DNA from: an uncultured Chlamydiales bacterium
Lineage (GTDB): Bacteria; Chlamydiota; Chlamydiia; Chlamydiales; JAAKFR01
Assembly: GCA_963699155.1 (NCBI GenBank)
Contig: OY969414.1
Span: 1,195,757 to 1,259,756 of the forward strand
Direction of reading: 5' to 3'
Length of the DNA: 64,000 bases
Shown here: one piece after another, positions 1 to 23,192 of the stretch
Numbering within the stretch: position 1 is the stretch's first letter
Layout of the letters: each line of letters starts with the position of its first letter
The notes under the pieces: generated by a model
What the model was told of the DNA's origin: nothing
What the model saw: the letters and a program-made list of their open reading frames with translations, nothing else
The model's database searches: none
Translations under genes and position numbers: made by a program

Positions 1-636
1 TTTCCTAAAGTCGTACTCCATCCCTCATTTGATTGGATGATGGCCAGTCTCGATGGAATTGATATCGATGGCACTTCAATTGTAGAGATTAAATGTCCTG
101 GTCAAGTCGATCATGAAATAGCAAAAGCAGGGAAGGTGCCTGAGAAATATTTCCCTCAACTTCAACATCAATTAGCCGTAACCGGTCTGGACATGGTCTC
201 TTATTTGAGTTTTGATGGAAATGAAGGAGTGATCATCGAAATAGGAAGGGATGAGCATTTCATTGCAAAAATGATCGATTTAGAGAAAGAGTTTTGGAAA
301 TGCGTGACGACTCTTACGGCCCCTCCATTGCAAGAAAGGGATATTGTCAAGCGTGAGGATCTAGAGTGGGCCGAAGTATCTAAACAATGGCTCGAGGTGC
401 ATCAAAAGATGCAGGTTCTTGAAAATGAAGAGAAAGCATTACGTGAAGTTCTTATCCAAATGGCAGGGGTTCAAAATGTCACAGGTGGAGGCGTTCGGTT
501 AACACGCTCTCTTCGCAAAGGCAATGTACAATATGGCCAGATCCCAGAACTTCAAAATATAGATTTGGAAAAATACCGCAAAGAACCCATGGAAATTTGG
601 AGGCTTCTACCTTCTGATAAAAAGAAGGATGCCTAA
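1..636 (+). CDS. YqaJ/lambda-exonuclease-like viral recombinase (5' partial)
   Basis: Frame open from base 1; motifs MASLDG...VEIKCP...YFPQLQHQLAVTG typical of YqaJ-family PD-(D/E)xK nucleases. Confidence 0.85.
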   Translation, partial: FPKVVLHPSFDWMMASLDGIDIDGTSIVEIKCPGQVDHEIAKAGKVPEKYFPQLQHQLAVTGLDMVSYLSFDGNEGVIIEIGRDEHFIAKMIDLEKEFWKCVTTLTAPPLQERDIVKREDLEWAEVSKQWLEVHQKMQVLENEEKALREVLIQMAGVQNVTGGGVRLTRSLRKGNVQYGQIPELQNIDLEKYRKEPMEIWRLLPSDKKKDA

Positions 637-845
637 AAAAGGGACTAAGGATGAACTTCATCCATTTTTCTGAACTTCAGGGTTACTGGTTGACAAAATC
701 ACAGAAATATTGAATATGAAATTTTATAATGGGTTTGAGCCTATTCTCTTCTTCCATTTTGGAAGAGAGTTGTGTATCAAGCGTAGGGCGTTTTCTTACG
801 CTTGCATCCGATAAGTGCATGGCATCCTCATCTTAATAGGTATTC

Positions 846-1844
846 ATGGAACTAAAAGCCAATAATCATTTAGCTCCTATTGTAGTAATCACAGGAGCCT
901 CTGCAGGTGTAGGGAGGGCCACGGCCCTTCGATTTGCTAAAAGCGGAGCTAAAATGGGGTTAATAGCTCGAGATGGCGAGCGTCTCAAAAATCTGGAAAA
1001 GGAAATCACAAATCTAGGATCTGAAGCCCTCTCGATTCCAATGGATGTAACCAATGAAGACGATATGTTCCGCGCTGCGGATGAGGTCGAAGAAAAGCTG
1101 GGACCGATTGACATTTGGATCAATAACGCTATGGTTACGATTGATTCGGAATTTATAAATATAGAGCCAAAGAATACGCCCGCGTCACTGATGTGTGTTA
1201 CCACGGTTTTGTCTATGGCACAATGGCTGCTCTTTCTAAGATGTATCCTCGAAATAAAGGGGTGATTGTCCTCGTCGGTTCGGCTTTGGCATACAGAGGG
1301 ATTCCACTCCAATCGGCTTATTGCGGAGCTAAACATGCGATACAAGGATTTAGTGAATCTTTGCGCAGTGAACTCATCCATAATAAAAAAAATATCTTCA
1401 TCACCATGGTTCAAATGCCCGCGCTAAATACTCCTCAATTCCATGTGGTGCAAAACAAATAGACCTAACAAACCAAAACCCGTGGCGCCCATTTTTCAAC
1501 CGGAAATTGCAGCTGAAGCGATTTTTTGGTCGGCGCACCATCCCAAAAAACGGGAAATTATCGTAGGAGCGAGGAATACCGTAATCGTATGGGGGAATAA
1601 ATTTTTCCCTGGATTTGGAGATTGGTATCTGGCTAAAACATGCTATAAATCTCAAATGACAAAAGAGCCGGTTGAAGAGAATCGGAAAATAAATCTTTGG
1701 ACCACCGTAAAAGGACCTTTTAAGTCTCATGGAACATTTGATAAAGAAGCTGTAAATAAGAGTTTGCAACTCTATTTCGTCATGCATCCATGGATCTTCC
1801 TGTTTGATTTTAGTTTTAATTTTAATAGGGGCATAGTATTTTAA
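846..1844 (+). CDS. SDR family oxidoreductase (two frameshifts)
   Basis: ITGASAGVG Rossmann motif, INNA and catalytic YCGAK spread over ORFs 846-1265, 1193-1462 and 1443-1844. Confidence 0.85.
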
Positions 1845-1848
1845 TAAA

Positions 1849-1990
1849 ATGGCATTAAAAAAGGAAACATAATCAGGTCGATAAAAACTTCTGTGTATAA
1901 AATCCCAACTAGTTCACCCGAATCTGATGGTACAATTCGAAGTGGGATGAAACAACTCTGGTTTTAGTATCCGTCGTGAACAGGTGATTC
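1849..1990 (+). pseudogene. N-terminal fragment of a mandelate racemase/muconate lactonizing (enolase-superfamily) protein
   Basis: Hand translation across frameshifts gives VYKIPTSSPESDGT..WDETTLVLVSV, resembling that family's N-terminus; the rest of the gene is absent. Confidence 0.5.
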
Positions 1991-2061
1991 AAACAACAGG
2001 CAAAAAAGTGCATCATTTAGCAGAAATATTAAAAATGGCCATCGACCAATAAAACCATTCG

Positions 2062-4468
2062 TTAAGAGCCGATGCGGACAATGAAATCTACACCTTCCCA
2101 ATGCTTCGCTTCCGGCCAGTGAAAAGTGAATTTCACTTCATTTCCAGTAGAAAGTTGCGTCGTCATGAGATCAGCGCTATGAATCCCTAATCCTACATCA
2201 TGTGTTTTTACATCATGAGTTGTTTGCCAATTATCAGCGCTCCAATGAATGATTGCAGGCGTCAATGTTTCGATACGGAGTATTTTGCCGGGATAGATGA
2301 AGCGAATCTTTTGATTAAACCTCCATATCATCCTTGGAGATACCGTTTTATCAATCAGATAACGTTTCACGGTTTGAGGAGGCATATCGAAGACTTTCCC
2401 GTCATGTAATGAACGTCGCAATTTGAGGTATTCTGCATGGGCCCAGACAAGAGGCATAGCCGAACCGGAAGGTTTACCCAAATACAATCCCTTTTCTGGT
2501 ATATCCTGCTTATCCCAGACTTGTTCTGAAATCAGCCCATTTTCTCCTGCGAAAGATTCCATGGCGTTAAGCAGCTTCTTTGCATTTTCGACCTGACCTG
2601 CTGCCAATTCGTAATGGGCTCGTTCACCTGTCAACAAGGGCCAACCACGGCCTATTCCTGTCCCATCAAATGGCGAGCCATCTTCATGTTCCCCATAGCC
2701 ATCATCATTGTAGCGATGCCATGTAGGCCCGCAAGGGGTCTCTATTTTGAGCAATGCATCTATCACTTTTACTGTATCGCGCATGCGTGGGTCATCCGCA
2801 GCGCGCAAACCAAAGCGTACTAGAGCAAGTGCATCGGGGCTTATCAGATGTTTAGTAAGCATAGTATCTTCAGCAGCCGAAACGTTTGGGATATGTACAT
2901 CCTTTTGTAAACGGGATACGCCTCCTGCTTTTTGCGTCGGAACAATCCGTACATAAAACCCTTGGACGTTAAATTTACGGCACCAGTCTGTTCCAGAGAC
3001 GTACATCCACTGATCGATGGATGTATTCCATACATCTGCGACCTCACGCAAGTAATTTGCAATCGATGTTTCCTGATTCAAATCGGCAAGATCAGCTGCT
3101 GCCAAGAGTGCAGCAATTTCTGCTCCAACAGTGAATTGTGAATATCCTGGATCTTCTTCCCAACGATCTTCTGGGCTAACAGGTCCATTGCGGACTAAAT
3201 AGCCAGCCGCATTTCGTACCATCGGCCAAAACTGAGCTGCGCTTTCCCTCGTCAATGCCCTTTCACGCAAAGCAAAATCAACCAAAAGAATGGGCAGGGC
3301 AGTTTCATCCATTTGGATTCCAGTCCAATTGGGCGAGCCATCCACCCACATATTCTGGGGCCAATACCCTTCAGCATGTTGAGTTGACTGCAAGAAAGAA
3401 AGCATGCGACGGACATCCTCATGCGCACCGGCAGCTAGCAAGGCGCCTGCCGTTTCCACCATGTCGCGGGACCAAATAAGGTGGTAACCACCCAGGTCCT
3501 TATCTCCCTTACTAAATCCCCAAGGTATGGATAGGCTAGCTATCAGGCCCCCCGGAGGTGTTTGGGATTCATGAGTGCGTATCACAGAGAGACTCTTTCG
3601 AGAAAGGGTGTTAGGAAGGGGATCTATCTCTTTCAACGCAGTATGCCCATTTATCCAATCCTGCCACCCGGCAAGGTAGGCTTGCTTTGCCGGATCAAAA
3701 CCAGCCTTAAGGCTGGCGATGGCATTGTGAGCGGCTTCTTCAGGATTCTTTGCCAAACCCAAGAGCCAATAGGAAATTACCACCCGATTTTGCAAGATCG
3801 ATTTGAGCAGTGAGAGACACATTGCCCCTTTCAGCGCGCGAATATTCACAAGTCATTTGTTTGTGATCTCTTAAGTCATGCCATCCATCTGAGGGACCTA
3901 CGTAGCTAACAGATCGTTTTAGCCAGGGAACGGAACAGGCAAGAGCTAATGCACAGTCTTTTCTCTGAGCAAATAATAGCTGAGTATTCTCAAATTCAGC
4001 TAGCCAAGCGGTATTATCCTGACCTTGATTCTCCAGATGTGGTGAAAGTACGACGTAGATTTTATAATCTGGTAATTGCCCTTGAAGTGGGATAAATTGC
4101 GTCTGTTGTAACACAGTATCTCGCTGAGAGTCTGTCACAATCTGTTTTTCAATGCGGTACCGATGTTCATGGCAGGTATTGACTAAACTAAATGCTGGTA
4201 CGCCATCGGCCATCCAGTGCACTTGTGAATCAGTATTCCGTTTCTCTTCTGAAAAAAAATGGCTCCCATCTGTGGCGATTAATCCCATATCGCGAGTACA
4301 AGCTTGGTCAATACGGGGATAATAGATTTCATTGAAGATTCCATGGCTAAGTGTAAACCAAATATGACTCTTGTCGCTAAGGGCCGTTCCAACTCCTGTT
4401 TTAGCGCTAGAAGTCCAACGAGCAGGGACACCGGGACTGCCGGGGGCGAAATTGTTTGGTGTTGGCAT
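2062..4468 (-). CDS. Glucoamylase / glucan 1,4-alpha-glucosidase (glucodextranase-N + GH15), one frameshift near 3.8 kb
   Basis: N-terminal APGSPG..RWTSSAKTGVG; GH15 motifs IASLSIPWG, GGYHLIWSRD, EDRWEE, RYNDDGYGE, SAMPLVWAHAEY. Confidence 0.9.
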
Positions 4469-4667
4469 GCTATATCCTTTTTGCATTTCCAATCTTTTCT
4501 ACATTTCTCTATTTAAAAAATAAATATCAAAATCATGTAGATACAGTTTGTCTCCACGTACCAGTTGGCTAAAATTAAAATAATAGTTACAGTCGTGTTA
4601 TCTTCGGTGAGTTGTTGTAAACATCTCATTCTTAATCAAGTTACTGATGTAATAGGCGTGGTCGAAC

Positions 4668-5911
4668 ATGAAACCAACTAGTCCTAGCATCCTGACAATC
4701 AATGGCGGTTCATCGAGCATTAAATTCGCGCTATTCGAAGCGAATAGCCCCCTGAATCGCATTCTGGGGGGCAGCATGGAGCAGATTGGACTGCCGGAAC
4801 CACCTTCGTGTGAAAGGGATCGAGCCAGGCGGATCACATTTCGCGACCTACTCGCTCAGAACCATACTGCAGCGGTAGATATCTTGATGGATTGGATTGA
4901 AGAGAGGTTCGGGAAAGATGCATTGACCGCAGTGGGACATCGCATGGTACATGGTGGAAAAATATATAAGCCGCAGCGAATTACTGAGGAAATGGTTGAA
5001 GAATTGCGTCAACTTCAGTCCTTTCGATCCTGAGCATCTGCCTGAAGAGATCCTTTTGATCGAGGCATTTCATCGTCGATTTCCTGACTTCCGCAAGTAG
5101 CGTGTTTTGACACAGCTTTTCATCATGATCTGCCACGGGTAGCTAAGTTGTTACCGATTCCACGCCGTTATGAAGCGCAGGGAGTGAGGCGGTATGGGTT
5201 TCACGGGTTATCCTATGAGTTTTTAATGGGAGAACTGGCCCGCTTGGCTGGAACAGAGGCAGCACAAGGCCGGGTCATCCTCGCCCATCTCGGCAATGGT
5301 GCGAGCCTAGCTGCGGTGCGACGGTGGCAAATCTATGGATACCAGCATGAGTTTCACTCCGACAGCCGGGGTGCCGATGAGTACACGTTCAGGAGATCTT
5401 GATCCGGACTAGTTTGGTATTTGGCACGCACGGAGGGATTCGATGCAAAACAATTCAATGAGATGGTTAATTTTCAGTCGGGACTGCTTGGTGTATCGGA
5501 GATTAGTTCCGATATGCGTGACTTGCTCGATCATGAAACTCAGGATATACGGGCAGCTGAAGCGGTCGCATTGTTTTGTTATCAGGTTAAGAAATGGATC
5601 GGTGCATTTGCAGCGGCGTTAGGTGGACTGGATACACTGGTATTTGCTGGTGGTATCGGGGAGAATGCACCTACGATTCGTTCCCGGATTTGCGAAGGTT
5701 TAGGATTTCTTGGAATCGAATTCGAAGAAAAACAAAATGCAGGCAAATGAAGGAGTTATTTCTACGGCAGCCGGCCAGAGTAACTGTCCGGGTCATACAT
5801 ACAGATGAAGAATGGATGATAGCACATACGGTCTGTCGCGTCCTTGGACTTAGAAGTCTTAACAAAGTGAAAAACATGATAATGAAGCATGCTGTAGAAA
5901 CTAGAAGTTGA
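4668..5911 (+). CDS. ackA: Acetate/propionate kinase (several frameshifts)
   Basis: [50 protein letters not shown] and TDEEWMIA across successive ORFs. Confidence 0.9.
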
Positions 5912-5926
5912 AAAACTGGTAAGCCA

Positions 5927-8280
5927 TTGTCGCCCGATCTGCTGCAAAAAATGAATGCCTATTGGCGGGCTGCGAATTACCTTTCGGTCGGCCAGATTTA
6001 TCTCTATGACAATCCACTGCTGAAGGAGCCACTAAAATTATCTCATGTGAAGCCGCTAGTGGTTGGACACTGGGGCACAACACCGGGCCAGAATTTCATC
6101 TATGTGCATTTGAACCGGGTCATCAAGAAATATGACTTGAATATGTTCTACATCGCCGGTCCTGGCCACGGCGGCCCGGCATTAGTGGCGAAATACTTAT
6201 CTCGAAGGCACCTATAGTGAGATTTATCCGAACATCAGCCAGGATGAAGCGGGCTTAAAAAAACTGTTCACGCAATTTTCGTTTCCCGGTGGGATTTCCA
6301 GCCATGTTGCGCCGACAACACCAGGGTCGATTCACGAAGGGGGTGAGCTAGGGTATTCACTCAGCCATGCCTTTGGTGCTGCATTCGACAATCCCGATCT
6401 GATCGTCGCTTGTGTGATTGGCGATGGTGAAGCAGAAACTGGCCCTTTGGCGACCGCATGGCAATCCAATAAATTTCTCAATCCAATTACCGATGGAGCT
6501 GTGCTGCCGATCCTACACCTAAATGGTTACAAGATCAGCAATCCGACTATCTTGGCTCGCATCGAGCATGAGGAATTGGAACAATTTTTCCGAGGCTGCG
6601 GCTGGACGCCTTATTTTGTGGAAGGTGATGAACCGGAAGAGATGCATCAACTCATGGCCGGTACTTTGGAAAAAGTCATCGAGGAGATTCGGCAGATCCA
6701 AAGCAACGCACGCAACAAGAATGACACTACTCGGCCACGCTGGCCAATGATCGTCCTGAGATCACCAAAGGGTTGGACTGGGCCAAAAGTTAGTTGATGG
6801 TCTGCAAATTGAAGGGACATTCCGAGCACATCAAGTGCCGCTTCTGGTAGATGCCGAGCATCCCGATCATGTTCAAGCAGCTTGAAAGCTGGATGAAAAG
6901 CTACAAGGCAGAGGAACTATTCGATGAGAATGGGCAGGCTTATACCGGAATTAGCTGAGCTTGCGCCTAAGGGTGACCGGCGGATGGGCGCCAATCCTCA
7001 TGCCAATGGTGGTATTTTGCTGCGCGATCTGCGTAATGCCGGACTTTCACGATCACGCGGTGAATGTGCCGTCTCCTGGCGCTGTCATGGCTCAAGACAC
7101 GCTCGTGCTGGGCAAGTTCCTTCGTGATGTGGCCAAGCTGAATCAGGATCAACGTAATTTTCGTATTTTCGGTCCCGATGAGACACTCTCGAATCTTTTG
7201 GGTGCAGTCTTTGAAGTCACTAATCGTCAATGGGACGCTCGGGAAGTAAAAAATGATGAATTTCTCGCACCCGCAGGACAAGTGCTGGATTCGATGCTCA
7301 GCGAGCACCAGTGCGAGGGATGGCTAGAAGGATATTTGTTAACCGGGCGGCATGGGCTGTTTAACAGTTATGAAGCCTTCATTCGTATCGTCGATTCGAT
7401 GTTCAGCCAGCATGCCAAATGGCTGAAGGTAACATTGGAATTGCCCTGGCGCCGGAAGATCGCATCGTTGAACTACCTGCTTGCCTCTCACGTCTGGCAG
7501 CAGGATCACAATGGATTCACACACCAAGATCCCGGTTTCATTGACCACGTGATCAATAAAAAGGCCGATATCGTACGCGTTTATCTACCCCCCGATGCCA
7601 ATTGCCTACTCTCGGTCTTTGATCACTGCCTGCGCAGCCGACATTACGTCAATGTGGTGGTAGCCGGCAAACATGCTCTCCCTCAATGGTTGACTATGGA
7701 CGCTGCAATTGTCCATTGCACGGAAGGAATTGGCATCTGGCAATGGGCTAGCAATGACCAGAATGCTGAGCCAGACGTGGTGATGGGCTGCTGCGGAGAT
7801 ACTCCCACACTGGAGATCTTGGCTGCTGTTTCCATTCTCCGCCAGCATCTACCCGATCTGAAAATCCGGGTGATCAATGTCGTCGATCTGATGAAGTTGC
7901 AGTCTCAGAGCGAGCATCCGCATGGTCTAAGCGACAAGGATTACGATTCTCTATTCACCAAAGATAAGCACATCATCTTCGGCTTTCATGGATACCCATG
8001 GCTGATCCACCGATTGACCTACCGCCGGACCAACCGCAACCTCCATGTTCGTGGCTATAAAGAAGAGGGCACCATCACGACTCCCTTCGATTTGAGAGTG
8101 CAAAACGACCTGGATCGCTTTCATTTAGTGCAAGATGTGGTCGATCGCCTGCCCCATTTAGGTGGTAAGGGGGCTTATTTGAAGCAGATGATGCAAGACA
8201 AGCTCATCGAGCACAAGCACTATGTCGATAAGCACGGCCAGGACATGCCGGAAATTCGGAATTGGAAATGGAAGGGATGA
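5927..8280 (+). CDS. xfp: Phosphoketolase (XFP family; frameshifted)
   Basis: [34 protein letters not shown] motif, [39 protein letters not shown]. Confidence 0.93.
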
Positions 8281-8350
8281 TAGTGCGATGGCGTTGCGAT
8301 TGATTGAGATAGTGTTGCAGGCTAATTCTCCTATTACAAAAGAGTAGAAT

Positions 8351-9376
8351 ATGACTATGGAAGCGCTAATAGATATCGCGAAAATGTTAGTTGCTGGAGA
8401 CAAGGGTCTTCTGGCAATGGATGAAAGTAATCCAACCTGTAACAAACGATTTGCCAAGTTGAGGAATTCCCGAGACTGAGGAGAACAGACGATGCCTATC
8501 GAGAGTTAATTGTAACAACACCTGGTCTTAGTGAGTGCATTAGCGGTGTGATTCTTTACGATGAGACAATCCGTCAACAGAAGAAAGATGGAACTCCATT
8601 TGTTAAGGTTATCACCGATGCAGGAATTATTCCCGGCATTAAAGTTGAACTGGTGCAAAGGACATGGCAGGTCATCCTGGAGAAAAAATAACTGAGGGTC
8701 TCGATAGATTGCGCGACGTTTGGCTGAATATTCTCAAATGGGCGCCCGTTTTTGCTAAGTGGCGCGCGGTGATTGCAATAGGCGATAGTATTCCAAGTCG
8801 AGGTTGCATCGAGGCAAATGCATAGGCATTGGCTCGCTATGCCGCATTATGCCAGGAGGCTGGACTGGTACCCATCATAGAGCCGGAAGTGCTCATGGAT
8901 GGCGAGCATACATTAGAAAGATGCTTCGAGGTAACAGAGGAAGTCTTACGAATAGTTTTCAATCAACTTTACACGCAAGGTGTGATGCTGGAGGGGATGA
9001 TCCTTAAGCCCAATATGGTGCTTCCTGGATTGACTTGTCCCAAGCAAGAAACGGTGGATGAGGTGGCTGATACCACAGTAAAATGTCTCTTGCGAGCTGT
9101 CCCGGCTGCTGTTCCTGGCATTGCGTTCTTGTCAGGTGGACAAAGCTGTGAATTGGCTTCGGCCCGTTTGAATGCCATGAATGTTAGATTCAAGTCACGA
9201 CTCCCTTGGGCGCTTGGCGTTTTCATTTGCGCGCGCCATCCAACAACCTGCTTTGGAGATTTGGCAAGGCAAAGAAGCCAACGTGCCCGCAGCACAAGAA
9301 GCTCTTATATCATCGAGCTAAATGCAATCGGGCTGCACGCCGTGGTGAATACACTCCCTCGATGGAAAGGGTATGA
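8351..9376 (+). CDS. Class I fructose-bisphosphate aldolase (frameshifted)
   Basis: Hand translation from ATG 8351 gives KGLLAMDES; also ARYAALCQEAGLVPIIEPEV, ILKPNMV and FLSGGQS; ends GEYTPSMERV* at 9376. Confidence 0.88.
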
Positions 9377-9400
9377 GATAGTAATAACAGAGATACCATT

Positions 9401-11863: not shown

Positions 11864-12018
11864 AAAACCATCCGATTTGACACCGCAGATCGCCAAGCGT
11901 GCGTATGAACTATACGAGCAACGGGGCCGTCAAGATGGAGAGAGCGGTTCAAGATTGGCTCCAGGCGGAACATGAAATACAGAAAGATAAATCACATAAA
12001 GAGAAATTGCCAAAATGA
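11864..12018 (+). CDS. DUF2934-like domain, probably the frameshifted C-terminus of the H+-ATPase
   Basis: Hand translation gives DLTPQIAKRAYELYEQRGRQDG..AVQDWLQAEHEI; it has no ATG start of its own. Confidence 0.65.
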
Positions 12019-12103
12019 CTCCAGACTCCAACTCATTTGATTCAAGCATTGGCATATCATTTGCTGGAACAAGCGTAATAACATTTATTATTGACGGCAT
12101 ACC

Positions 12104-12360: not shown

Positions 12361-14145
12361 TTAGTGAGTGTGTTCGAATTTGTGTTCTTCAAACTGAAGT
12401 AAAGAAAGTAATAGCAATACTTGAAAAAGTCTATTCACAATAGACTCTGTTATTTCTTCTAATTCAATAAGACCATGGCAAACATTATTGCGTATGTTCC
12501 AGCCCAAGGGGCTAGTTAATAATAACTTGAAATAGGTAAGAAGGTTATCGTCAAAAGCATTTTTAAGTTCATCTTTTTCAAGGATAGCACCCAAAGTCAA
12601 AAGTTGAAAACCTCCATTCTGATCTAACCTGTAAGTTACTCACCCTGCAATTCCACAAGAGTTGGCAGTATGTGCTCGATTTGAGGAATCAGTATGTAAG
12701 CAGCAGAAAAAAAATCCTTGTTTAAGAAAAAATTCAAACCCTTTGCTAGCGCATTTTTCCTCTTAGAAATTTGAGAAATACGAAATAACTTTTTTGAAAA
12801 AAAATGATCTATAAGATCATCAACATGAACATTAAATGTTGATATGACATTTTTAAGAATGTCGTTCAAAAATACGGTCAATATTGCTATGTCCTGCGAC
12901 ATTTGCAACAGAACATGGCTATCTAAATCCTCAGCAATAGGCTTCACTCTTGCTAAAGTTCGGCCTTGTTTATCCTGCTTATTAATGCCAATAAGAAACG
13001 TCAATGGGTATTGCTTAAACAGCTCCTGAACGGTGTGCGCAGCTTGCTCTTTTTTGAGGAAGGAAACTTATAGCCATTGTCTCAAGGGCACTTGATAAAG
13101 ACCCCTTCACAAACTCCTCTGCATATTTTTGATATTCTGCAGCAGAAATAGTTGTTTTTGCCTCTACGATATGCAAATCTTCAGGAGGTAATTCTTGGAT
13201 AGCTCTCAAAATTTTCTGTTTGAAAGATTTACCTAAACCAAATCTTTGGAAAATATGCAAAGCTTCTCTCAGCCAAGCCTCCGCAACCATCGGTGATACT
13301 TTTTTTGCAGCAACTAATACTTCTTCTCCATATACGGATAAAACTTCTTCAATTTGCTGAGGTTGTCGAGGGATATGCTTATTTAAATAATAGTCGGCGA
13401 GCCTTTCGGCCGCTTGATGCAATCCAAAGATATTATTACTAGCGCTTTTCAAGCGCACAAATCTTTCTTTTAGTCGTTCAATAATAAGGTTAGTTTGTTC
13501 TGTGGAAAGTAATTTTGACACTTTTTTATCATCTACTAAAAGATCATAACTAAATCCCCAAGTTCCAAGTTGTTGATCTACAGCATACAAAGACTCAAAG
13601 TCGATGATTTTGTTGATCAAGGCTGTGATTCTTTGTATATCAGAGATTTGCATGGCAATATTTAAGCCTCTCGCAAGAGCAATCTTTCCTTCTACGGCGG
13701 GGAATTTAAAAGGTATAGCTCTTGAGCAAAGGGCAATTGTCTGATCGACTGCTTCTTGTGCAAATTTTACATCTGCTCCAGAGCCTGTGACTGATTTGGT
13801 GAGATCCCAAACTAAGTCAGAATATCTTAACCGTAGGGCAGGGTGTTGAGCATACTTGCATCGATCTTGCCAATATTCGAGAACCTCAGGTGTCAGAACC
13901 GAAATGGATGGATTTTCAAAAACGGAGCCATCATCATGTTTGCACCTGAAGTACGGACCATAGTAGTTATTTATACCCGCATTTTTGGCAAACAAAAATG
14001 CCAATGATTCAGCGCGGAATGCAAATTCCTCGTTGATTTTAGGTTGTTGTTCTGCTAACTGACGAAGTCTATCAGATATTTCAGCTTCACTGAATGGATC
14101 TGTTTTGGATTCATAATCCAAAAATATTGATTCTACACTTTTCAT
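12361..14145 (-). CDS. DUF4209 (HEPN-like) domain protein, two frameshifts
   Basis: Three collinear ORFs; C-terminal LIPQIE and LLTSPLGWNIRNNVCHG (RxxxxH). Confidence 0.7.
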
Positions 14146-14149
14146 AATT

Positions 14150-15235
14150 TTAGAAATGATCCCTATCTGAAGCATCCTCAGTTCTATGTTCTGTTAGTTT
14201 TGCTTCAATTTCAGCTGCGGTGGGTAATGTGCCCTCGAGTTCTTTAGGAAGGGTATCTAAAATGGTCACTTCATATTCAGAAACACCCATGGGCATTGTA
14301 CTTCGTTCTAAAGAGTATTCAACTTTTAAATCATTCTTTGTGCGGCAAATAATCATCCCTATCGATGGGTTATCTGAGGGATGTTTGATTTGTCGATCCA
14401 CTGCAGCGAGGTAAAAATTCAATTTCCCTGCATATTCTGGTTTGAAGTCAGTCGTTTTTAATTCTACTACACAAAAGCAGCGTAGCTTGATGTGGTAGAA
14501 AAGCATGTCTAAATAATAGTCATCTCCTGCGATCTCGATGTGATACTGTCTGCCAATGAAAGCGAATCCCTGTCCTAGTTCTAAAATCAACTTTTCTAAA
14601 TTATCGATAAGCCCACGCTCAAGTTCTTTTTCAACATAATCATTGGTGAGAGACAAAAACCCAAAATTATAGGGACTTTTTAAAATATCAATAGCTAAAC
14701 GAGAGTGGGGATCGGGTAGGCATGTCTTAAAGTTTGTAACGGCTTTTCCCTGTCTTTTGTAAAGATTTGATTTAATAGCCTCTTCTAATGCTCTTCCACT
14801 CCATCCCTTTTGCAGTACCTGATGGGCATACCAATTTCGAGTATCTGGATCCTTTAACTTCTCTATTAGCAGGATGTTATGCCACCATGGAATTTGTGCA
14901 AGCAGTGTCTGCACAAATTGCGGATCAGGGTAAATTTCGGCAAACTTGCGCATGTATTTTAAATTTCTAACTGAGAATCCAGAAATTCCCGGAAACTCGG
15001 TAGCTAAATCTTTAGCCATCCGGTCAATTATTTTTGCACCCCATCCCTCTTTATTCTGCTTTTCAAGAATAGATTTACCAATCGACCAATAGAGTTTTAC
15101 TAACTCGCTATTGACAGATAGGCTAGCACGCAATTGGGCTTCTAGGATTTTTTTCTTAATCTCTTCAAAAAAATCTTTGTAATTGATTGGGAGAAGTTGT
15201 GAAGAATTGGGCTCAGCAAAAAGATTTGTTGTCAT
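14150..15235 (-). CDS. DUF1016/YhcG family PD-(D/E)xK nuclease-domain protein
   Basis: VNSELVKLYWSIG, GFSVRNLKYMR, ELGQGFAFIGRQ, DMLFYHIKLRC..VVELK, GKLNFYL. Confidence 0.92.
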   Translation of the reverse strand: MTTNLFAEPNSSQLLPINYKDFFEEIKKKILEAQLRASLSVNSELVKLYWSIGKSILEKQNKEGWGAKIIDRMAKDLATEFPGISGFSVRNLKYMRKFAEIYPDPQFVQTLLAQIPWWHNILLIEKLKDPDTRNWYAHQVLQKGWSGRALEEAIKSNLYKRQGKAVTNFKTCLPDPHSRLAIDILKSPYNFGFLSLTNDYVEKELERGLIDNLEKLILELGQGFAFIGRQYHIEIAGDDYYLDMLFYHIKLRCFCVVELKTTDFKPEYAGKLNFYLAAVDRQIKHPSDNPSIGMIICRTKNDLKVEYSLERSTMPMGVSEYEVTILDTLPKELEGTLPTAAEIEAKLTEHRTEDASDRDHF

Positions 15236-15344
15236 AATATAATGGGTTTGTAAATCGAGGAATTTTTCCATACCGATCGAGAGAAGTCAATATTTTCATG
15301 TGGAGTATCTGATAACGCATGTATTATTTAAGATGGATGCAGTC

Positions 15345-16880
15345 TTAAAAATTTCTGTATTGGTAAGGAGCTAACGGAGACATGAAGTTATCATAGGCTG
15401 CCCTGCCTTTTTTGCGTTGAGCTTCTTCATCAGCATGATTTTTTGCATTCGCTGCTCGTAAGCTGAGAGCAAGATAGCGAAAAGCATCCGCACCATCGCT
15501 AGAAAAGTCATGGACAGGTTTATCACTCCAGCATCCATGCCGTTCATTCCATTCTTTTTTGTAATTTTCAAGTGCTCGAATCCCTTTTTCACATTTTGCT
15601 TCGTCAAACCAGCAACGGTTGAAAATGGCTCGCACAGCATCGATGCCTTCTTGGAGACTCAATTTAGGAACGGGAGTCAAAGTAATGCCATGGTTGCGTG
15701 CGATTTGGATGCGATTAAGGCCACTTCCATATTCATGATTATTAGCATCGTGAGGAACGAAGTATTTCTGCGTAAAATAAGGCTTATCTTTTAAAATTTT
15801 AAGATAATGTGTCAGTGGCTCTCCCGACATTTCATAGTAATCTATCAAATGCACTTCCTGTCCTAGAATTTGATACCACCAGATCGCTGTTGAATCGTTA
15901 AATCCTAAATCCATGGAGACAAAGGCAGGTACTGTTTCGTCGTAGACAACTCGTCCAATTCGTTTTTCAGCTCTGGCTTTTGCAATATATTTGCCATAAT
16001 ACAAACCCTCTGTGGAAGCCTGGAAAGCTTCATCTGGGGTGCTTGGATATTCTCGCTTCATATCCTCATGCTGTGTGACGTATTTTTTGGCATACCAGCT
16101 CATTTGAGAGGGGTGCAGGGTGATTTTGTGTACTTCATGTAACTCCTTGAAGTACTCAAATAAGTCGGGAGGAATAGTCACTGCGTTCTCAATCCAATAC
16201 TCCCTATTCCTGAACCAAGGGAAAAAGAAAAATTTGAAATCCAGCGGGGTTAATTCTATTTCAGAGTCTTTTAAAGCTTGCGCTCTCTTACACATTTCAT
16301 AAAAATAACCCTCCCTCCCTTCGGCTGTCGATTCGATGAAGCAATACTGACCAGATGCTAACGTATTCAATGAGCCCGTGACGATTTCTCGTGCTTTATC
16401 AGGAAATTTAGCGCATATCTTCCCAAATTCCGAAATGTGCAAATATTGAAATGTGCTCGATCTCAAAGACATACCCACTCTCAATGAAGAGCCATTGGAA
16501 AATTGGATCATCTGGGCGGTGTCCATGTTTGATTGACGCAGTGCTTTCAGTTCTTCAGGCAGATTGTCATATGCAAATTTTGCACGGCGAAACAGCTGCT
16601 GAGCATCTTCGAGGGTATGTGCAATGATCCCTGCTGAAACGTTGGAGTTGAATAAGCAACGATCGAGGAACAGAAGGCAAATGAACGTTGAAATGCCCAA
16701 CTGTCTGGCTTTAAGAATGAGATTACAATGGTGGATCCCATTATACAGCTCTTCCTGTGCCCAATTCATTTGAAATCGAACTTTATTGCCTTGCTTATCA
16801 ATGATGTAGTAGAGATTGTTGAGTCTCCATCTTGGATTTGCAAGGAGCATCTGAGCAACGTCGATTTCTTCAGTTTTCAT
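15345..16880 (-). CDS. terL: Phage terminase large subunit
   Basis: ILKARQLGIST Walker A, LHISE Walker B, ESTAEG motif III, and an RNase H-like C-terminal domain (MDLGFNDST...DGADAFRY). Confidence 0.9.
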   Translation of the reverse strand: MKTEEIDVAQMLLANPRWRLNNLYYIIDKQGNKVRFQMNWAQEELYNGIHHCNLILKARQLGISTFICLLFLDRCLFNSNVSAGIIAHTLEDAQQLFRRAKFAYDNLPEELKALRQSNMDTAQMIQFSNGSSLRVGMSLRSSTFQYLHISEFGKICAKFPDKAREIVTGSLNTLASGQYCFIESTAEGREGYFYEMCKRAQALKDSEIELTPLDFKFFFFPWFRNREYWIENAVTIPPDLFEYFKELHEVHKITLHPSQMSWYAKKYVTQHEDMKREYPSTPDEAFQASTEGLYYGKYIAKARAEKRIGRVVYDETVPAFVSMDLGFNDSTAIWWYQILGQEVHLIDYYEMSGEPLTHYLKILKDKPYFTQKYFVPHDANNHEYGSGLNRIQIARNHGITLTPVPKLSLQEGIDAVRAIFNRCWFDEAKCEKGIRALENYKKEWNERHGCWSDKPVHDFSSDGADAFRYLALSLRAANAKNHADEEAQRKKGRAAYDNFMSPLAPYQYRNF

Positions 16881-17307
16881 GGTTAAGAAGCTCTTTTGAG
16901 GCACCATCGATACGATTTAGAACAAAGGCAAGAGGATTGCCAGTATCGCCTGAAACCTGCTGACGATCGGTCCAACCACAAGTATTTGCTAAAACTAGCT
17001 TCGTGATACTTGCGTTATAGAGATTCAGCAAACCCCCTTTGATTAGCTTCGATTGCTGCCAATGTTGAGCCCGCCTATACACTCCAGAAAACTTTTCATT
17101 TTCTTTAGCCCATATTGCAAGTAGGTCGGGATCATAGCTTCGTTCCAGAGCAAAATCTTTAAACCAGACGCTATCGGGTCGCTGCATCCATTCCTCAAAT
17201 GCAGTGGCTTCGTCTTCGATAAACTGTGCAGTGTACATTTTAGGACGACCCCCATTTTCACTGCCTGGATATGCGGTATGACCTTTTGGAGCTGGCATGT
17301 TGCCCAT
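16870..17307 (-). CDS. Probable phage terminase small subunit
   Basis: MPAPKG..GRPKMY start, helical core with GGL..YNASITKLVL; overlaps the terL start. Confidence 0.75.
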   Translation of the reverse strand: MGNMPAPKGHTAYPGSENGGRPKMYTAQFIEDEATAFEEWMQRPDSVWFKDFALERSYDPDLLAIWAKENEKFSGVYRRAQHWQQSKLIKGGLLNLYNASITKLVLANTCGWTDRQQVSGDTGNPLAFVLNRIDGASKELLNHEN

Positions 17308-17410: not shown

Positions 17411-18403
17411 TTATTTAAGTATTTCTAAAACCCATTCTCTAATGTCCAATCCTTGTTGAATGGCCTCACCGATGTCTTTTCCCACAGGGGTAGGACATGC
17501 TTCTGATGCAGGATATAGTTTTTGCCATTTGGTAAGCATAGCAATGCCACCCTCATCATTGTCGTGACATATCAACACTTTTCTTCTTTTCGCCCAGTAA
17601 TCTGTCACAATATCTGGATTTTTTGTATTGCTACCAACAGCCACAACAAAAAGCAAGTCGCTACAAACATGATGCAGAGCCAAGGCGTCAAATTCACTTT
17701 CCACAATCATCATGATCGGCTTCTGAGTATTTCCAACGATGTTTAAGCCATTCATAGATCCTGGCATCGCCCAATACTTGGGAAATTTTGCATCTTTATA
17801 CCATCCTTCTCTTCGGATTTTGATACGAATAACCTGCCCTGAAGGCTCTGTAGTTGGAATGACAATTCCTATCGGGATTTTTATTTCTGGCTTATCATCT
17901 ATTTCAAACTCTGAGCCAGATAATGTGATCTTACGGTCACAAAATCCTATGCCATAATTTTTAATGGCTTCTTCAGGAATACCCCTTTTAGTTAACCATT
18001 GTATTTGTGCAGGATGATTCCAAATCATTTTATGAGCCCATGCTACGCAATCATTAGCTCTTTTTAGCCATTTTTCACTCGGTGCATGCAGAATCGGAGT
18101 CACAAATGTTTTGTTGTCGACAGTTGAGAAGAGTGACCTTCTGTGCGAAATATTTAATTTTTTCGCTATCTCTTTAAATGGCACACTCAAAAAGTCTACA
18201 TAAAATTGAATTGTGTCACCCCTTACCTGGCACTGTCGACATTTATAATATCCAATGCAATTTTTCATTTGTCTGTTAGGCTGGATATAACATCTATCAT
18301 GACCTCCGCATGCAGGGCAGGATCAATGATATTCTCCTCCATGAGTAGCTGATACCCTTTTTGGATCTAACCCAATCTCTCTAAATAACTGTAGCAAGTC
18401 CAT
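17411..18403 (-). CDS. Zn-finger + Toprim primase-like protein with an in-frame TGA at 18323-18325
   Basis: From ATG 18403: ...GGEYH*SCPACGGHDRC...YKCRQC, in frame with ORF 17411-18268, which carries Toprim motifs IVESEFD and CHDNDEGG and a GKDIGE tail. Confidence 0.75.
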
Positions 18404-18457
18404 AATTCCTCTAACTCGTTATCTATAAAGTCTTTAGCAAAATGAATTATGAAAATC

Positions 18458-18632: not shown

Positions 18633-18652
18633 ATACAATGCTGAACCCCCGC

Positions 18653-20328
18653 TCACTTTTGGTACCCCATAGCATCGTTTTCATCATTGAGAAGTTTGAT
18701 CCCTTTCCATAATCGATACTGACCTGTCCTTCCATCAACCTCTTCTCCAAATTTATGAATCAAATAATTCGCCATTTCATTTTTGTTGGGCTTAGCATAA
18801 CCGTTAGAATCGCAAAACTTTTCCAGTGCTTGACGCATTTTGTTTTTTTGTGTGGAAAAAGCTGCATCCAAAATGCATTTTTCGTCTAAGAAATGTCCAA
18901 TTACATCATTTTCTTTTCGGTAGTTTTCTGTTTCCTGAAGGACAATGCTTGGGATTAAAAGACCGTCTGTTTGATATTTAATACATCCAAGAATTGCCAA
19001 GCGAGAATGCTTTCAGTTTCCTTGAATAACTTTTCTTTAAATCCAGGATCTAACAACCGCTCGTGAGGGTCTTTTGGTTCTGCGACAAAGTGCGCATTGA
19101 ATGGAATTAAATAGGTTCTAGACCAGAGAGCCTGGTCATCGGCAGGTGCCTCAGGCTTATAATTTGTTTGGATGAACATTGTATGCGATGGCTTTATTGC
19201 AAGGTCAACATTGGAATAGAGGCGCCTACAGGGGATCGTGTCTCTTCCACTATAGTTTTTCACTTTGGCTGCATCGATTGTCTTACCCTTATTAATTTCA
19301 GAAAATATTGCAAAGCGGACACCTTGAAGGTTTGCAAGTTCTGGACTTGGACTATTTGAATTCTGAGTATTTTTTTGTAATAAAAGCATTTCAGAAGGAA
19401 AAGTTCTGGCTAATTTTCCCAATACTCTCTCCAAGGCTTGTAGCAAGGTTCCTTTTCCATTGCGGCCTTGTGCTCCATAAAGAAAGAAAACTTTTTCTTC
19501 TTTTGCATCACCAAGAAGAGCTGATCCAAGACAACAGGCTAAAAAGTCCATCAACTCCTCATCTTCGAGTGTAATATCTTGGATGAATTTATCGAATAAT
19601 GCGCTATTAGCAATTGGAATATAAGGAGTTGGACACACCGTGCGCAGGTATCTTGCTGGTAGGTGAGGTAAAATGTCACCTGTTTTTAAATCAACAAGAC
19701 CATTACTGCAGGGAAGAAATCCTGGACAATGATCCCAAGTGCCTTTGAAAGAGACTTCTGTGCTAATGAATGTAAAAACAGCACTATAACGTTTAGCAGT
19801 ACGCAAAGTAGATGCTCTTTTTTTAATAGCATTTATAGTGTTTGCTTCATTTACATAAGAGGCAGCCCATTCATATAACTTTTCAACCTCTTTCATGTCT
19901 TGGTAACGTTGTCGAGCGAAATCTATTTCCCAATGAGTGCCATTCCAAACATAAAATGCTCCATTTTTCCCTTCAGAGCTGTCAAAAACATATTTATCCT
20001 TATGCAGATAAATAAATAATTCGGCATCTCCTCGTTCATTTCTATCTAGAGCATCCAAGACCATTTGGAGCTTCTTATCATTTGCGTTCTCTTCTTCAAG
20101 TCGAGCCGCGTTTGCTTGTATTTCAAGAATCCTGCTCATCTCAGAAGCATTTGTAAAGAGTTCAGGATTAGTTTTTAAGATTTCTTTTAGAGAACTACCA
20201 AGAGAAAAGGCTTGAGCTTCTAATAAAGAATTTTTCTCATTCCTAAGATCCTTTCTTTCGATTAGAAGCTTTTCTATTGATTCTCTTCCGGATTTATTAT
20301 TAACGAATTTGTTATTAACTGTTTGCAT
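18653..20328 (-). CDS. P4/D5-family SF3 helicase (phage/plasmid primase family), one frameshift near 18975
   Basis: D5_N-like YVWNGTHWE and LPCSNGLVDLKTG; Walker A GRNGKGT; ELANLQGVR; QTNYKP..DQALWSR..IPF; the C-terminal part is ORF 18653-19000. Confidence 0.88.
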
Positions 20329-20359
20329 TTATTAAACACTTGTTGAGCAGCGCTTTCAA

Positions 20360-20560
20360 TTATCTCTTTTTTCCTTGGCAATCAATCCATTCATCAAAAA
20401 GATCGATTCTGAGAAGTAAGCGCTTGCCGATTCTCCTAACTGCCTTTTCAAGGCCATTTTTGTGGCGCTTATGCAACAAGTGTCGCAATTGACCTTCAGT
20501 GAATGGATATCGTTCGCTACTAACGATTTGTTCAGGGTACCAAAATTCATAGCTGGACAT
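20360..20560 (-). CDS. Small excisionase/AlpA-like DNA-binding protein
   Basis: 66 aa, basic, with a RRIGKRLLLRIDLFDEWI wing motif; lies between the integrase module and the helicase. Confidence 0.65.
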   Translation of the reverse strand: MSSYEFWYPEQIVSSERYPFTEGQLRHLLHKRHKNGLEKAVRRIGKRLLLRIDLFDEWIDCQGKKR

Positions 20561-20655
20561 AGATTCTCCTATTTTTGAATATGTCCTAATAATAGCCGAT
20601 GTTTTTGGTAGAGTCGATTAAAGCCGTGGGAGTACGACCAACACTTTTTGGCAGT

Positions 20656-21948
20656 CTAGGGTGATAGAGAAGTGACAAGTTGCTGATATCTATGGCCTGG
20701 CACTTCTTGAGGCAGACTCATGAATGTAAGGAAGGTAATTTTACCAGGATAAGGCAGGTTAGCCTGTTCAATAGCTCTGCGTAATACTCTGTCTAAGCAG
20801 CTTTGTGGAGCTAAAAAGAAAAGCGAGGATTTGGGCTGGCCGAGTAATTGGAGATAATCATGTAAGAAAAAGGAAATGGGTGCTTCTTTTTTTCCAAATG
20901 ATGTGAGTAAGGATAACGCAGGAAGTGGTTGAGATGGTGATAAATCAGATAAGGATAATTCACGTATTTGATTGATTTCTGAAGTTATGCGAGAAAAAGC
21001 ACAGGTCAAACATATCCATAGCAAACCGAGCGCCTGAGCTGCATTTCTTTGAGCATCCCTTCTCCCTGTTAAAACTATTGAGATCAGGTTTTGAATGATC
21101 TTGACAACGCTAAATTGATCAATGGGATATTTTTGTGGTTTCACAAGACGAATCAGGCAATTGCCTTGCACATTCTTCTCAAGAGGGAGTATGTTATTTA
21201 AATGGTGTAAATCTTTATAATTTAGTTCATTACGAATGAAGTTTGCAAAACTGTTGAGGGATTCCCACCATTTTCCATCTTTCTCCTTGGGTAAAATCTC
21301 ATGAGATAGTTGTTGCAAATACTCAAGTAAATCGATCCCCTTACGCGGATAAGAAATAATGTCGTATCGAATTTTGAGATCATCTGCTTGCTCGAACCAT
21401 TTCTCATACCACTTAGCTGCAGATTCTAAAAAGAGAGGCGGTATTTGATCTTCTAACGTTTCGGCAGGGAACATGTCGTTCAAATAGCCTTGCGCATCTC
21501 TATCAAGGTGTTGGCGAATAAAATTCACAAAACTATTTACGGATTCATACCACTGTTCATCTCTATTTTTAGATAAAAATTCATAGGATAACCGTTGCAA
21601 ATACTCAAGCAAGGTAGTTTCTGCATTATCTTTGCAAGAGCGAGAAGTTATATTTAATTGACTTTTAGGATCATGTGCATGATTGCGCCATTCTTCATGC
21701 CATCTTGTAGCAGATTCTAAAAAGAGAGGCGGTATGCGCCTCTCTATTTTTGCCTTTGTCATCAAAGGCAGATAATGATCTGTGGCAAACATCCAACAGC
21801 GAGCTTGTTCTATTTCAGAGAAATTAACCCCTGATCCAAGCTCAGGGGAGATGGAGCCATCAGGATGGCCCATTGTGTTTATTCGGAAAGCGATTTTGGC
21901 TTGTAAATTTTTGAGAACTGCTTTGATTGGAGTGATGTTGTAGCTCAT
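20656..21948 (-). CDS. Hypothetical protein with an internal ~95-aa duplication and a degenerate tyrosine-recombinase-like C-terminus
   Basis: Repeats IPPLFLESAxxW and LLEYLQxLS..W.ES.NSF.NFIR; overlaps the integrase stop by 4 bp. Confidence 0.7.
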   Translation of the reverse strand: MSYNITPIKAVLKNLQAKIAFRINTMGHPDGSISPELGSGVNFSEIEQARCWMFATDHYLPLMTKAKIERRIPPLFLESATRWHEEWRNHAHDPKSQLNITSRSCKDNAETTLLEYLQRLSYEFLSKNRDEQWYESVNSFVNFIRQHLDRDAQGYLNDMFPAETLEDQIPPLFLESAAKWYEKWFEQADDLKIRYDIISYPRKGIDLLEYLQQLSHEILPKEKDGKWWESLNSFANFIRNELNYKDLHHLNNILPLEKNVQGNCLIRLVKPQKYPIDQFSVVKIIQNLISIVLTGRRDAQRNAAQALGLLWICLTCAFSRITSEINQIRELSLSDLSPSQPLPALSLLTSFGKKEAPISFFLHDYLQLLGQPKSSLFFLAPQSCLDRVLRRAIEQANLPYPGKITFLTFMSLPQEVPGHRYQQLVTSLSP

Positions 21949-23019
21949 TCGGCTTGCTCCAAAATTCGAGAAGAAGCTTCTTCGCTAAGATGGCGCACAT
22001 CTCGTACATCAAGATGTGTATAAACTTCAAGCATTTGGATCGTTTTATGACCAAGTGCAGTTTTTAATTGAAGACTATTGGCTCCAGATTTTGCTGCTGC
22101 AGTTGTAAAATGATGTCGTGTTCCATGAAATACAAAATTTTCGATATCGGCTTGTTTTAAGGCAGTTTTCCATGCTTTACTGATATCAATCTTCCCAAAA
22201 GCGGTTTTGCTTGCAAAAACTAAAGGTTTTGAGGGGTCGCGGTTTTGGTAAATGGATTTCAGCTCTTGAACAACAACATCTACCAGGGGCACACTGCGTG
22301 CTTCCCCATTTTTAGTTTCGGTGAAATGTGCCACTTTGTTTTGAAGATCGACTTGATCCCAAGATAATCCTAAAATTTCGCCCTTGCGAGCACCTGTAGT
22401 CAAGGAGAAGAGAACAATGCAATAAAGATAAGGATTTTTACTGTTACGGCAAGCTTCAAGCAACCTCTGGACTTCATTGTTTATCAATGGACGTCGTTTT
22501 TTTGTAAATTCTTTTAGCTTTATTAGGTTAGAACAAGGGTTTTCATCGATCCATCGCAATTGACGGCATCCATAAGTCAATGCTCCTGAAAGTGAAGCAA
22601 TGTATCGGTTTACTGTAGACGCTGTGCGCCCTTTTCCTTTTGGTGTTGGTGTACTGAGGAGCAGTTGTCTTTCTTCAGTTAGCCGCTCTGGAGTCACATG
22701 GAAGAGGAAGTAAGTACCAAGTCGTTTTTTCCAGTAATTGAGGTGACGTAGTGTATCTTTTGACGAGCTATGGTGTTCTAAGGTTCCACTGGTGATATAG
22801 CGATCGACTAGATCGCCAAAGGTATTCTTTTGTTTGTATCTTTTGAAATTGAAACGCCCATTTCTAATCTCAAGCTTCTGTTTCTGCCGCCCAATCCCTA
22901 GCTTCTTCTATGCGATCGACAATTTTGCAAACGGTATCATGCCCTTTGATGCGAATCAGTACTTTCCAACCAGGAAGTGTTTTGCCATTTTTATCTTTTC
23001 TTCTAGTAATGGTTGCCAT
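21945..23019 (-). CDS. int: Tyrosine recombinase/integrase (one frameshift near 22875)
   Basis: Catalytic GARKGEI, TKNG, HGTRH, LGH and VYTH; N-terminal arm MATITRRKDK...EARDWA hand-translated from ATG 23019. Confidence 0.92.
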
Positions 23020-23192
23020 AACTCAAACCTCATTTTGTTAATTGATTTGAGCGGCCGAAAATGCTGGATAGTGCTGGTTAGATTTTTTTTCACTGTACCG
23101 CATTTGTACCGCAAGACTGAAAACTAGCGAGTTACACTAATTTTTTCAATCTCAATCTTGCTCACAGATGCTCGTCAGTGCTGGATAAAGGT

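Follow-up and report, generated by a model that had tools for sequence, protein, structure and literature searches.

The tRNA-proximal 11 kb (~12.3–23.2 kb) of the DNA analysed here, a 64,000-nt window from the genome of an uncultured Chlamydiales bacterium, is a member of a Chlamydiota family of self-replicating elements that integrate at tRNA genes. Members of this family keep genes for both the small (TerS) and the large (TerL) terminase subunit and have no portal, capsid, tail or lysis genes. With modest confidence, we read them as phage-satellite-like elements that possess a complete terminase and lack capsid genes. An earlier note, made from the sequence alone, had taken positions 1–23192 for a tRNA-integrated island of phage or satellite descent, and several of its claims are revised below.

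The window covers positions 1,195,757–1,259,756 of contig C1, the single contig of the source genome G000 (2,399,326 bp; G+C content 0.475). Negative coordinates lie upstream of window position 1, and L001 is the annotated stretch that includes 20 kb upstream of the window. G001 and G002 are genomes of the same genus, G304–G307 are contigs from IMG/VR, L-numbers denote related loci or stretches, and X1–X4 are contig sets from sequencing runs (Logan).

Gene content of the tRNA-Met element

The tRNA and the genes of the element, all on the minus strand, are as follows.

23193..23265, minus strand: tRNA-Met(CAT), integration target (ARAGORN); its 3′ 42 nt (23193–23234) form the proximal direct repeat
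21945..23019, minus strand: tyrosine integrase in two frames, the N-terminal 41 aa in another frame (PF00589, E = 3.8e-33; phrog_1, E = 1e-53)
20656..21948, minus strand: protein X, 430 aa, its start overlapping the integrase stop (family comparison and AlphaFold (AF2) model of the G002 homologue)
20360..20560, minus strand: conserved 66-aa open reading frame (ORF), 52–61% identical in three other elements (4/4 aligned elements)
18653..20328, minus strand: D5-type primase-helicase (D5_N, DUF5906 and a C-terminal domain) in two frames (PF08706, E = 2.4e-17; PF19263; phrog_1156, E = 7.5e-65)
17411..18268, minus strand: DnaG-type primase with CHC2 Zn ribbon and Toprim (PF13155, E = 3e-7; phrog_47, E = 4.5e-21)
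16870..17307, minus strand: TerS, P22 gp3-like (PF16677, GP3_package, scoring 29.2 bits where the cut-off is 29.4)
15345..16907, minus strand: TerL, full length, 520 aa (phrog_2, E = 6e-34)
14150..15271, minus strand: YhcG/DUF1016 PD-(D/E)xK nuclease, defence candidate PDC-S02 (PF06250, E = 1.8e-62; PADLOC PDC-S02, E = 2.7e-147)
12361..14175, minus strand: DUF7380/DUF4209 protein split into three pieces, candidate defence gene PDC-S39 (PF13910, E = 2.8e-16; PADLOC)

The terminase is complete. TerL is ~50% identical, over 89–92% of its length, to the TerL proteins of Pseudomonas phage PS-1 and Erwinia phage EhrS_49, cultured siphoviruses in which terS-terL is followed directly by portal, MuF-like and capsid genes. 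Its ATPase and nuclease motifs align with those of both phages. The TerS homologue in genome G039 scores 30.9 bits with PF16677, and TerS homologues 44–71% identical to the protein of the window adjoin terL in related loci.

As the earlier note had described, the island begins at the 3′ end of tRNA-Met(CAT), with the integrase adjoining the tRNA repeat at the end of the element. The gene run that it had listed was recovered as integrase, an integrase-like protein (by fold), D5 helicase, primase, terS and terL; its helix-turn-helix (HTH) or AlpA member was not confirmed, as the 66-aa ORF gave only weak matches to DUF6462 (E = 0.03–0.22). No AlpA, Stl or MerR regulator and no capsid-morphogenesis gene was recognised in the element. 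The 66-aa ORF is a possible candidate for a small DNA-binding or excision factor. The C-terminal piece of the helicase matches positions 718–832 of phrog_1156, and this D5-type primase-helicase resembles P4 alpha.

Protein X matched nothing in Pfam, PHROG or PADLOC and no sequence in the PDB. It is 29% identical to its G002 homologue and belongs to an unannotated family with 167 representatives at E ≤ 0.001; compared with integrases in hhalign, the family profile gave a probability of 1%. An AF2 model of the G002 homologue, built from 50 sequences, reached a pLDDT of 92.5 and a pTM of 0.90, and replaced a poor first model from 4 sequences (pLDDT 51), which was discarded. Residues 178–338, the C-terminal half, match tyrosine recombinases: the top Foldseek matches were XerH, XerA, Cre and XerD (best E = 8.6e-4), and VIA gave Z scores of 12.1 to integrase 3nkh (145 aligned residues, r.m.s.d. 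3.6) and 10.4 to XerH, together with 8.5 to SPbeta MrpR and 7.7 to phi3T SroF. R334 is kept in 46/47 family members, the next residue varies (Y/F/H/C/P/A), and the nucleophilic Tyr appears not to be conserved in the family. The model thus predicts a tyrosine-recombinase fold for X, for which 'int-like' is a correct label at the level of fold, and its role may be regulatory or accessory. The gene contains two diverged tandem copies at 21233–21735 (73–74% identical, ~290 nt apart), and this internal duplication explains why X has 430 aa here and ~340 aa elsewhere in the family.

The G002 integrase, intact at 356 aa, is 60–62% identical to that of the window, whose frame changes near 22871–22891. 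The three pieces of the PDC-S39 protein match profile positions 29–303, 424–498 and 532–579, in order. Broken frames extend beyond the element: the integrase, the helicase, PDC-S39 and all metabolic genes to its left are read in several frames, but so are tuf (37115–38319, four frames), rpoB (two pieces) and rpoC (five pieces; 41959–49927). The splitting of these genes shows that the assembly carries clustered single-base indel errors; to read the breaks in the island as decay is therefore unsafe, as are pseudogene calls anywhere in G000.

Window DNA was present at low share in five sequencing runs, none of them RNA (four aligned; three labelled soil metagenome). In X4, an extra base behind 18995 joins both helicase frames by frame arithmetic, on a single metagenome contig of depth 3.1. 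No contig in the aligned runs joins the integrase frame change, where X3 has a gap (22863–22877). Over the aligned stretch, which stops short of the distal copy of the tRNA repeat, no attP-type joint appeared. Coverage in X1 has gaps at 3.5–12.8 kb and 20.8–22.8 kb, and its loose ends at 23193 and 23266 are most simply read as another tRNA-Met locus. Contigs of the same run are 95–99% identical to the window over 12.8–20.5 kb and divergent left of 12839; judged from them, a close variant of the element appears to have another neighbour after the PDC-S39 gene.

Recurrence of the layout and its tailed-phage relatives

TerL matches were found in 9/41 related genomes including G000, and those in G002, G003, G023 and G039 were strong (61–64% identity). 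A TerL search of a species-representative collection returned 15 loci. Titles of loci at 58–64% identity were mostly those of Chlamydiae, Chlamydiales or Parachlamydia(ceae) metagenome-assembled genomes (MAGs), the exceptions being a 4-kb contig labelled Saccharimonadia, one labelled Verrucomicrobia and several labelled 'uncultured bacterium'; outgroups at 43–46% identity came from Lentisphaeria and Pseudomonadota. The layout seen in G002, G039 and the L025–L037 loci consists of integrase, X, a small ORF, one of several replication modules (DUF5906, DUF3987 or DnaB), terS, terL, an HTH gene and defence genes. Other family members adjoin tRNA-Met or, in two loci, tRNA-Thr/Tyr. Defence genes or candidates that follow terL elsewhere in the family include type I restriction-modification with Shedu, AbiE and an Mrr-helicase-HA protein. 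The same cargo slot holds a VWA/PP2C phosphatase/protein-kinase triad in L028 (9261–12655).

Fifteen loci with sequence downstream of terL were compared (G000, G002, G003, G023, G039, L023, L025, L026, L028, L031, L037 and G304–G307), leaving aside four that end in or at terL (L024, L027, L030 and L035) and three duplicates (L029, the same as G002; L033, the same as G003; and L047, close to G304). No portal, capsid or tail gene is seen in 12 of the 15, and in none of these 12 did the region downstream of terL give a structural PHROG or portal match. The same PHROG scan detected portal, capsid and tail genes directly after terL in the outgroups L034 and L036, and the other positive controls (phages PS-1 and EhrS_49, G029 and G305–G307) likewise gave structural matches. 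The synteny that the earlier note had suggested looking for in Chlamydiota MAGs recurs, as an integrase/replication/terS/terL layout lacking structural genes, in these 12 loci.

In G000 itself, no structural PHROG or Pfam match was obtained in the island, which lacks the portal, major capsid, tail and lysis genes of a tailed prophage, and the 20 kb annotated upstream of the window showed no structural gene. The complete genome had no match to the portal and capsid families phrog_156, PF05065, PF04860, phrog_332, PF05133, phrog_267 and PF06381, of which phrog_332 and PF06381 matched none of the control genomes either, and none by tblastn to 17 structural proteins. The upstream block of structural genes by which the earlier note would have recognised an ordinary decayed prophage was thus found neither there nor elsewhere in the genome.

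True tailed-phage blocks do occur in the order. The phrog_156 portal is present in 15/301 genomes sampled, with G000, G002 and G003 not among them. One block (G029:C16; L018) comprises terL, portal (phrog_156), scaffold, major head protein (phrog_283) and adaptor genes, and another (G016:C38; L019) comprises terS, terL and portal. TerL remains full length in the family and its motifs are conserved; dS was saturated in 36/36 TerL pairs, with dN of 0.13–0.43, so that dN/dS was not computable.

Five IMG/VR contigs encode TerL at 57–59% identity. G304 (18,194 bp) has a 127-bp direct terminal repeat and an ORF crossing the junction, and carries two integrase matches, an HTH gene 64% identical to that of the G000 island, a primase, terS and terL. 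It gave no match to the phrog_156 portal or the phrog_283 capsid, and its three uncharacterised ORFs had no match among 50,697 phage records. In G305, G306 and G307, a phrog_156 portal gene directly follows terL; G306 (40.6 kb) and G307 (38.8 kb, with terminal repeats) are rated 100% complete and encode no integrase. G307 also encodes homologues of the YqaJ exonuclease (45–47% identity) and of the HTH proteins in the left block of the island. In a FastTree phylogeny of 24 TerL sequences, built without the rows of G016 and G029, the portal-bearing G305–G307 nest among the portal-less elements with local support of 0.95–1.0; an IQ-TREE phylogeny that included the long-branched G016 and G029 TerL sequences was poorly resolved. 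By their place in the TerL clade, G305–G307 are candidate helpers.

A further member, on the 32.8-kb plasmid-like contig G003:C24 (L017/L020), has terS-terL at its start; the other genes of the contig encode a resolvase, an LPD38 polyvalent protein of 1344 aa, ParA and a member of UPF0137 (the chlamydial plasmid pGP6-D family).

Integration site and extent of the island

The 3′ end of the tRNA recurs as an exact copy of 42 nt, 6.7 kb upstream of the window at −6738..−6697 (L001:13262–13303), where the earlier note had proposed searching for such a repeat, and adjoins an APH gene; the two copies bound a span of 29.9 kb. The repeat has no partner within the window, in which the repeat search and a search allowing 3 mismatches returned the tRNA itself only. 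Searched genome-wide as a seed, its first 30 nt have only two copies at ≤5 mismatches, and a search with the full repeat from −20 kb to +23 kb found no further copy of at least 11 nt between −20 kb and 23.15 kb. The left limit at position 1 given in the earlier note is not a real boundary, since it was set by the window edge; the island continues upstream to the distal repeat at −6738.

The same slot is occupied in the congener G002. Orthologous flank genes and tRNA-Met are followed there by an integrase, homologues of X and of the small ORF, a DUF5906 helicase, terS and terL, and then by an HTH gene, type I restriction-modification with Fic, YgjP, DUF2779 and Shedu. Beyond these, partial copies of the tRNA (three repeats of 42–44 nt) occur at spacings of 19.6, 8.2 and 11.4 kb, and the last adjoins an APH orthologue 80% identical to the G000 gene; by these repeats and the APH orthologue, the slot holds three elements in tandem, with lengths of 19.6, 8.2 and 11.4 kb. 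The second encodes an integrase, X and the small ORF, followed in our list by a Zn-ribbon primase, DUF3987 and AbiE, and the third has been disrupted by IS66 and a group II intron. The two genomes thus share a DUF1207 gene, tRNA-Met, elements and the APH gene in this order. As the tRNA-integrase junction is repeated in an independent assembly, a chimeric join at 23.19 kb, a possibility raised by the earlier note, is ruled out.

The 29.9-kb span of G000 is composite: besides the terminase element, it contains a host-like block and another phage-like block of low G+C. This conclusion draws on G+C content and on the congeners and not on internal repeats, of which there are none of at least 11 nt. 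G+C is ~0.39 across 12–23.2 kb and from −6.7 to +2 kb, and ~0.49 across 2–12 kb. The remaining features of the span are as follows.

Upstream of position 1: HA-domain helicase pieces, an HTH_3 protein, two small ORFs of phage families (phrog_3054 and phrog_4652), an HNH nuclease, a second HTH_3 protein, RecT (L001:18980–19765) and the start of YqaJ
1..636, plus strand: YqaJ/RecE-like exonuclease, C-terminal part, the gene starting upstream of the window after RecT (PF09588, E = 1.9e-12; phrog_434, E = 4.9e-32)
846..11863, no strand assigned: metabolic block of fragmented short-chain dehydrogenase/reductase (SDR), GH15 glucoamylase, acetate kinase, phosphoketolase, class-I aldolase and P-type ATPase genes (Pfam)

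The YqaJ exonuclease named in the earlier note is therefore genuine, with its C-terminal part in the window. The cargo that it had proposed stands for the defence-like genes, PDC-S02 and PDC-S39, whereas hotspot or chromosomal DNA is the better reading of the metabolic genes. G+C in the metabolic block is 0.44–0.52 across 2001–12000, and the SDR pieces (846–1844) lie in a stretch of 0.41. The phosphoketolase (xfp)-ATPase pair has DNA identities of 78% in G002 and 89% in G001. In G002 it lies ~6 kb beyond the last repeat, outside the repeat-bounded array, and in G001 between homologues of a left-flank gene of G000 and of the phrog_3054 ORF of the island; G000 holds a second, intact xfp-ackA pair elsewhere. 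Judging by these arrangements, the block is probably hotspot-resident or chromosomal DNA trapped between two mobile segments by rearrangement. Delivery of the metabolic genes as cargo of the terminase element is disfavoured, as the xfp-ATPase pair is shared with congeners and lies outside the array in G002. A class-I aldolase fragment (8829–9542), situated between xfp and the P-type ATPase gene, is missing from the xfp-ATPase pairs of G001 and G002.

The hotspot is broader than the repeat-bounded span. Low G+C extends ~8 kb to the left of the distal repeat (L001:5000–13261; window −15000 to −6739), over IS3 transposase pieces and genes for an AAA protein, APH and a fatty-acid desaturase, and in G002 a primase-like fragment lies beyond the APH gene. 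At a distance from the hotspot, a short terL fragment with stop codons at 2110262–2110489 of G000 (L021:10263–10490), between a BioY/biotin-ligase pair and an XerC/D-type recombinase gene, is a remnant of another element.

Interpretation and comparison with known systems

We infer excision, helper dependence, packaging and the role of X, and the following cycle is proposed as the most likely. The integrase would excise the element at the tRNA-derived repeats, and the co-transcribed X and small ORF may serve as regulators or directionality factors. Replication would then depend on the element's own helicase and primase, after which its own TerS and TerL would cut concatemers and pump them into procapsids of a helper tailed phage. 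Possible helpers are the portal-bearing phages nested in the TerL clade, two of the three being rated complete at 39–41 kb. The slot after terL would hold exchangeable anti-phage genes.

A different origin is that the elements are decayed prophages, that is, remains of temperate tailed phages of the G305–G307 kind which have lost their structural and lysis half and resemble each other through a common route of decay. We judge this unlikely. The complete phage record G307 does contain homologues of the island's TerS-TerL, YqaJ and HTH proteins, portal-bearing phages nest within the TerL clade, the third G002 element is degraded by IS66 and the group II intron, and the G000 copy is frameshifted in three genes; those frameshifts are unreliable, however, given the splitting of tuf, rpoB and rpoC. 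Moreover, the phage-like part ends exactly after terL in 12/12 portal-less loci and is then followed by differing cargo, and the first G002 element, with repeats 19.6 kb apart, has no structural gene. The complete phages G306 and G307 lack an integrase, the replication modules differ among the elements and were not found in the phages, TerL is full length with saturated dS, and G304 is a closed 18-kb molecule.

Still less probable, in our estimate, is that the element is integrative or plasmid-like, dispenses with phage particles and has co-opted the terminase for DNA processing, anti-packaging defence or plasmid maintenance. The plasmid-like contig G003:C24, with its ParA, UPF0137, resolvase and LPD38 proteins, would fit such an element, as would the terminase in the 'phage group' of chlamydial plasmid genes described in PMC7846284 and the constant position of defence genes after terL. 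Yet TerL retains the ATPase and nuclease motifs of true phages and has its closest relatives in complete phages, TerS is always kept beside it, and a terminase with a non-packaging role was not met in the literature examined. Misassembly or misbinning of phage-like DNA onto a chlamydial chromosome deserves hardly any weight: the assembly has many indel errors and two related contigs bear foreign labels (the 4-kb Saccharimonadia contig and the Verrucomicrobia one), but the same flanks recur on a 2.6-Mb contig of the independent genome G002, a third carrier is a 2.2-Mb chromosome, and L031 has a Chlamydia-specific DUF818 gene beside its element.

Several points weigh against the satellite interpretation that we favour. 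Excision from a chromosome, induction and packaging are predictions for all members, and activity is putative for the G000 copy, in which the integrase, helicase and PDC-S39 appear frameshifted. The terminal repeat of G304 indicates a circular or terminally redundant assembly, not encapsidation. Structural genes were sought by PHROG scans in most loci and by single families and BLAST in G304, and several members hold uncharacterised ORFs after terL (such as those of 373, 370 and 801 aa in G304) that could be unrecognised structural proteins. The IQ-TREE phylogeny separates the element clade from phages at a support of only 74/99, and Chlamydiota are only putative hosts of G305–G307. Finally, the satellites known so far have either TerS alone or a complete set of capsid genes, and a terminase-only satellite has no experimental precedent in the literature examined.

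Taken together, the data allow a wider reading, which we put forward tentatively as possible rather than probable: podovirus-like phages of ~39–41 kb would infect environmental Chlamydiota, bacteria with an obligate intracellular life, and would be parasitised by diverse capsid-less TerS+TerL satellites that need only procapsids and tails, stand in tandem at tRNA genes, are a main vehicle of anti-phage defence genes in chlamydiae and form a class distinct from phage-inducible chromosomal islands (PICIs), capsid-forming PICIs (cfPICIs), P4 and PLE. To our knowledge, the characterised chlamydial phages are small single-stranded DNA viruses without terminases. The element family, the prophage blocks in 15/301 genomes and the complete phages in the TerL clade suggest a circulation of tailed phages and their parasites in chlamydiae, with transfer of defence genes between these bacteria. 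To the satellite layouts known so far, the family would add one with a terminase only.

Like PICIs of the SaPI type, as described in the main text of PMC10085698, the element has an integrase at its attachment-site end, a primase-replicase module and a co-oriented TerS, a fixed integration site, no other structural or lysis genes, and accessory or defence genes after the packaging gene. It differs from them in its recombinase-fold protein beside the integrase and in its full-length TerL: PICIs typically have no other structural genes, and terL is there a marker of cfPICIs, together with capsid genes. With cfPICIs it shares TerS, TerL, integrase and a replication module; these encode capsid, head-tail adaptor and connector proteins in the same account, whereas none is found in the element or in 12/12 portal-less relatives. 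The string 'Chlamydi' occurs 0 times in that main text, so that the host phylum is one without a satellite described there.

Protein X resembles SPbeta MrpR and phi3T SroF in its tyrosine-recombinase catalytic-domain fold, in a family in which a nucleophilic Tyr appears not to be conserved. It has no sequence similarity to either, and true integrases score higher against it (Z = 12.1 and 10.4).

Terminase genes of chlamydiae are already in print, and to that extent the claim of the earlier note for a possibly undescribed family is narrowed, while recurrence of the layout supports its view of a satellite trace. PnaK_GI2 of Protochlamydia naegleriophila is a tRNA-Thr-adjacent island with a terminase large subunit (PMC5010888), comparable to our two loci at tRNA-Thr/Tyr, and two chlamydial plasmids carry a 'phage group' with a terminase (PMC7846284), comparable to G003:C24. 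In the relevant passages of both papers, which we compared by description only, these genes are mentioned in passing, with no element family, attachment sites, satellite reading or helper. The literature searched held no description of tailed phages or satellites of Chlamydiota, supplements such as Data S2 of PMC7846284 being outside its scope.

Parallels in mode of integration are offered by the tycheposons of Prochlorococcus (bioRxiv 10.1101/2020.12.28.424599) and the marine VEIMEs (integrative mobile elements encapsidated in virions; PMC9618062). As portrayed in the sections consulted, these carry TerS or a capsid protein and are expected to obtain TerL from a helper, unlike the present element. 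They share with it a tyrosine recombinase that inserts them at the 3′ ends of tRNAs, replication genes in a small module and cargo open to exchange; some of them carry a packaging gene, and their tandem build-up, which leaves partial tRNA copies behind, matches insertion at the tRNA 3′ end with a 42-nt repeat in G000 and the array of three repeats in G002.

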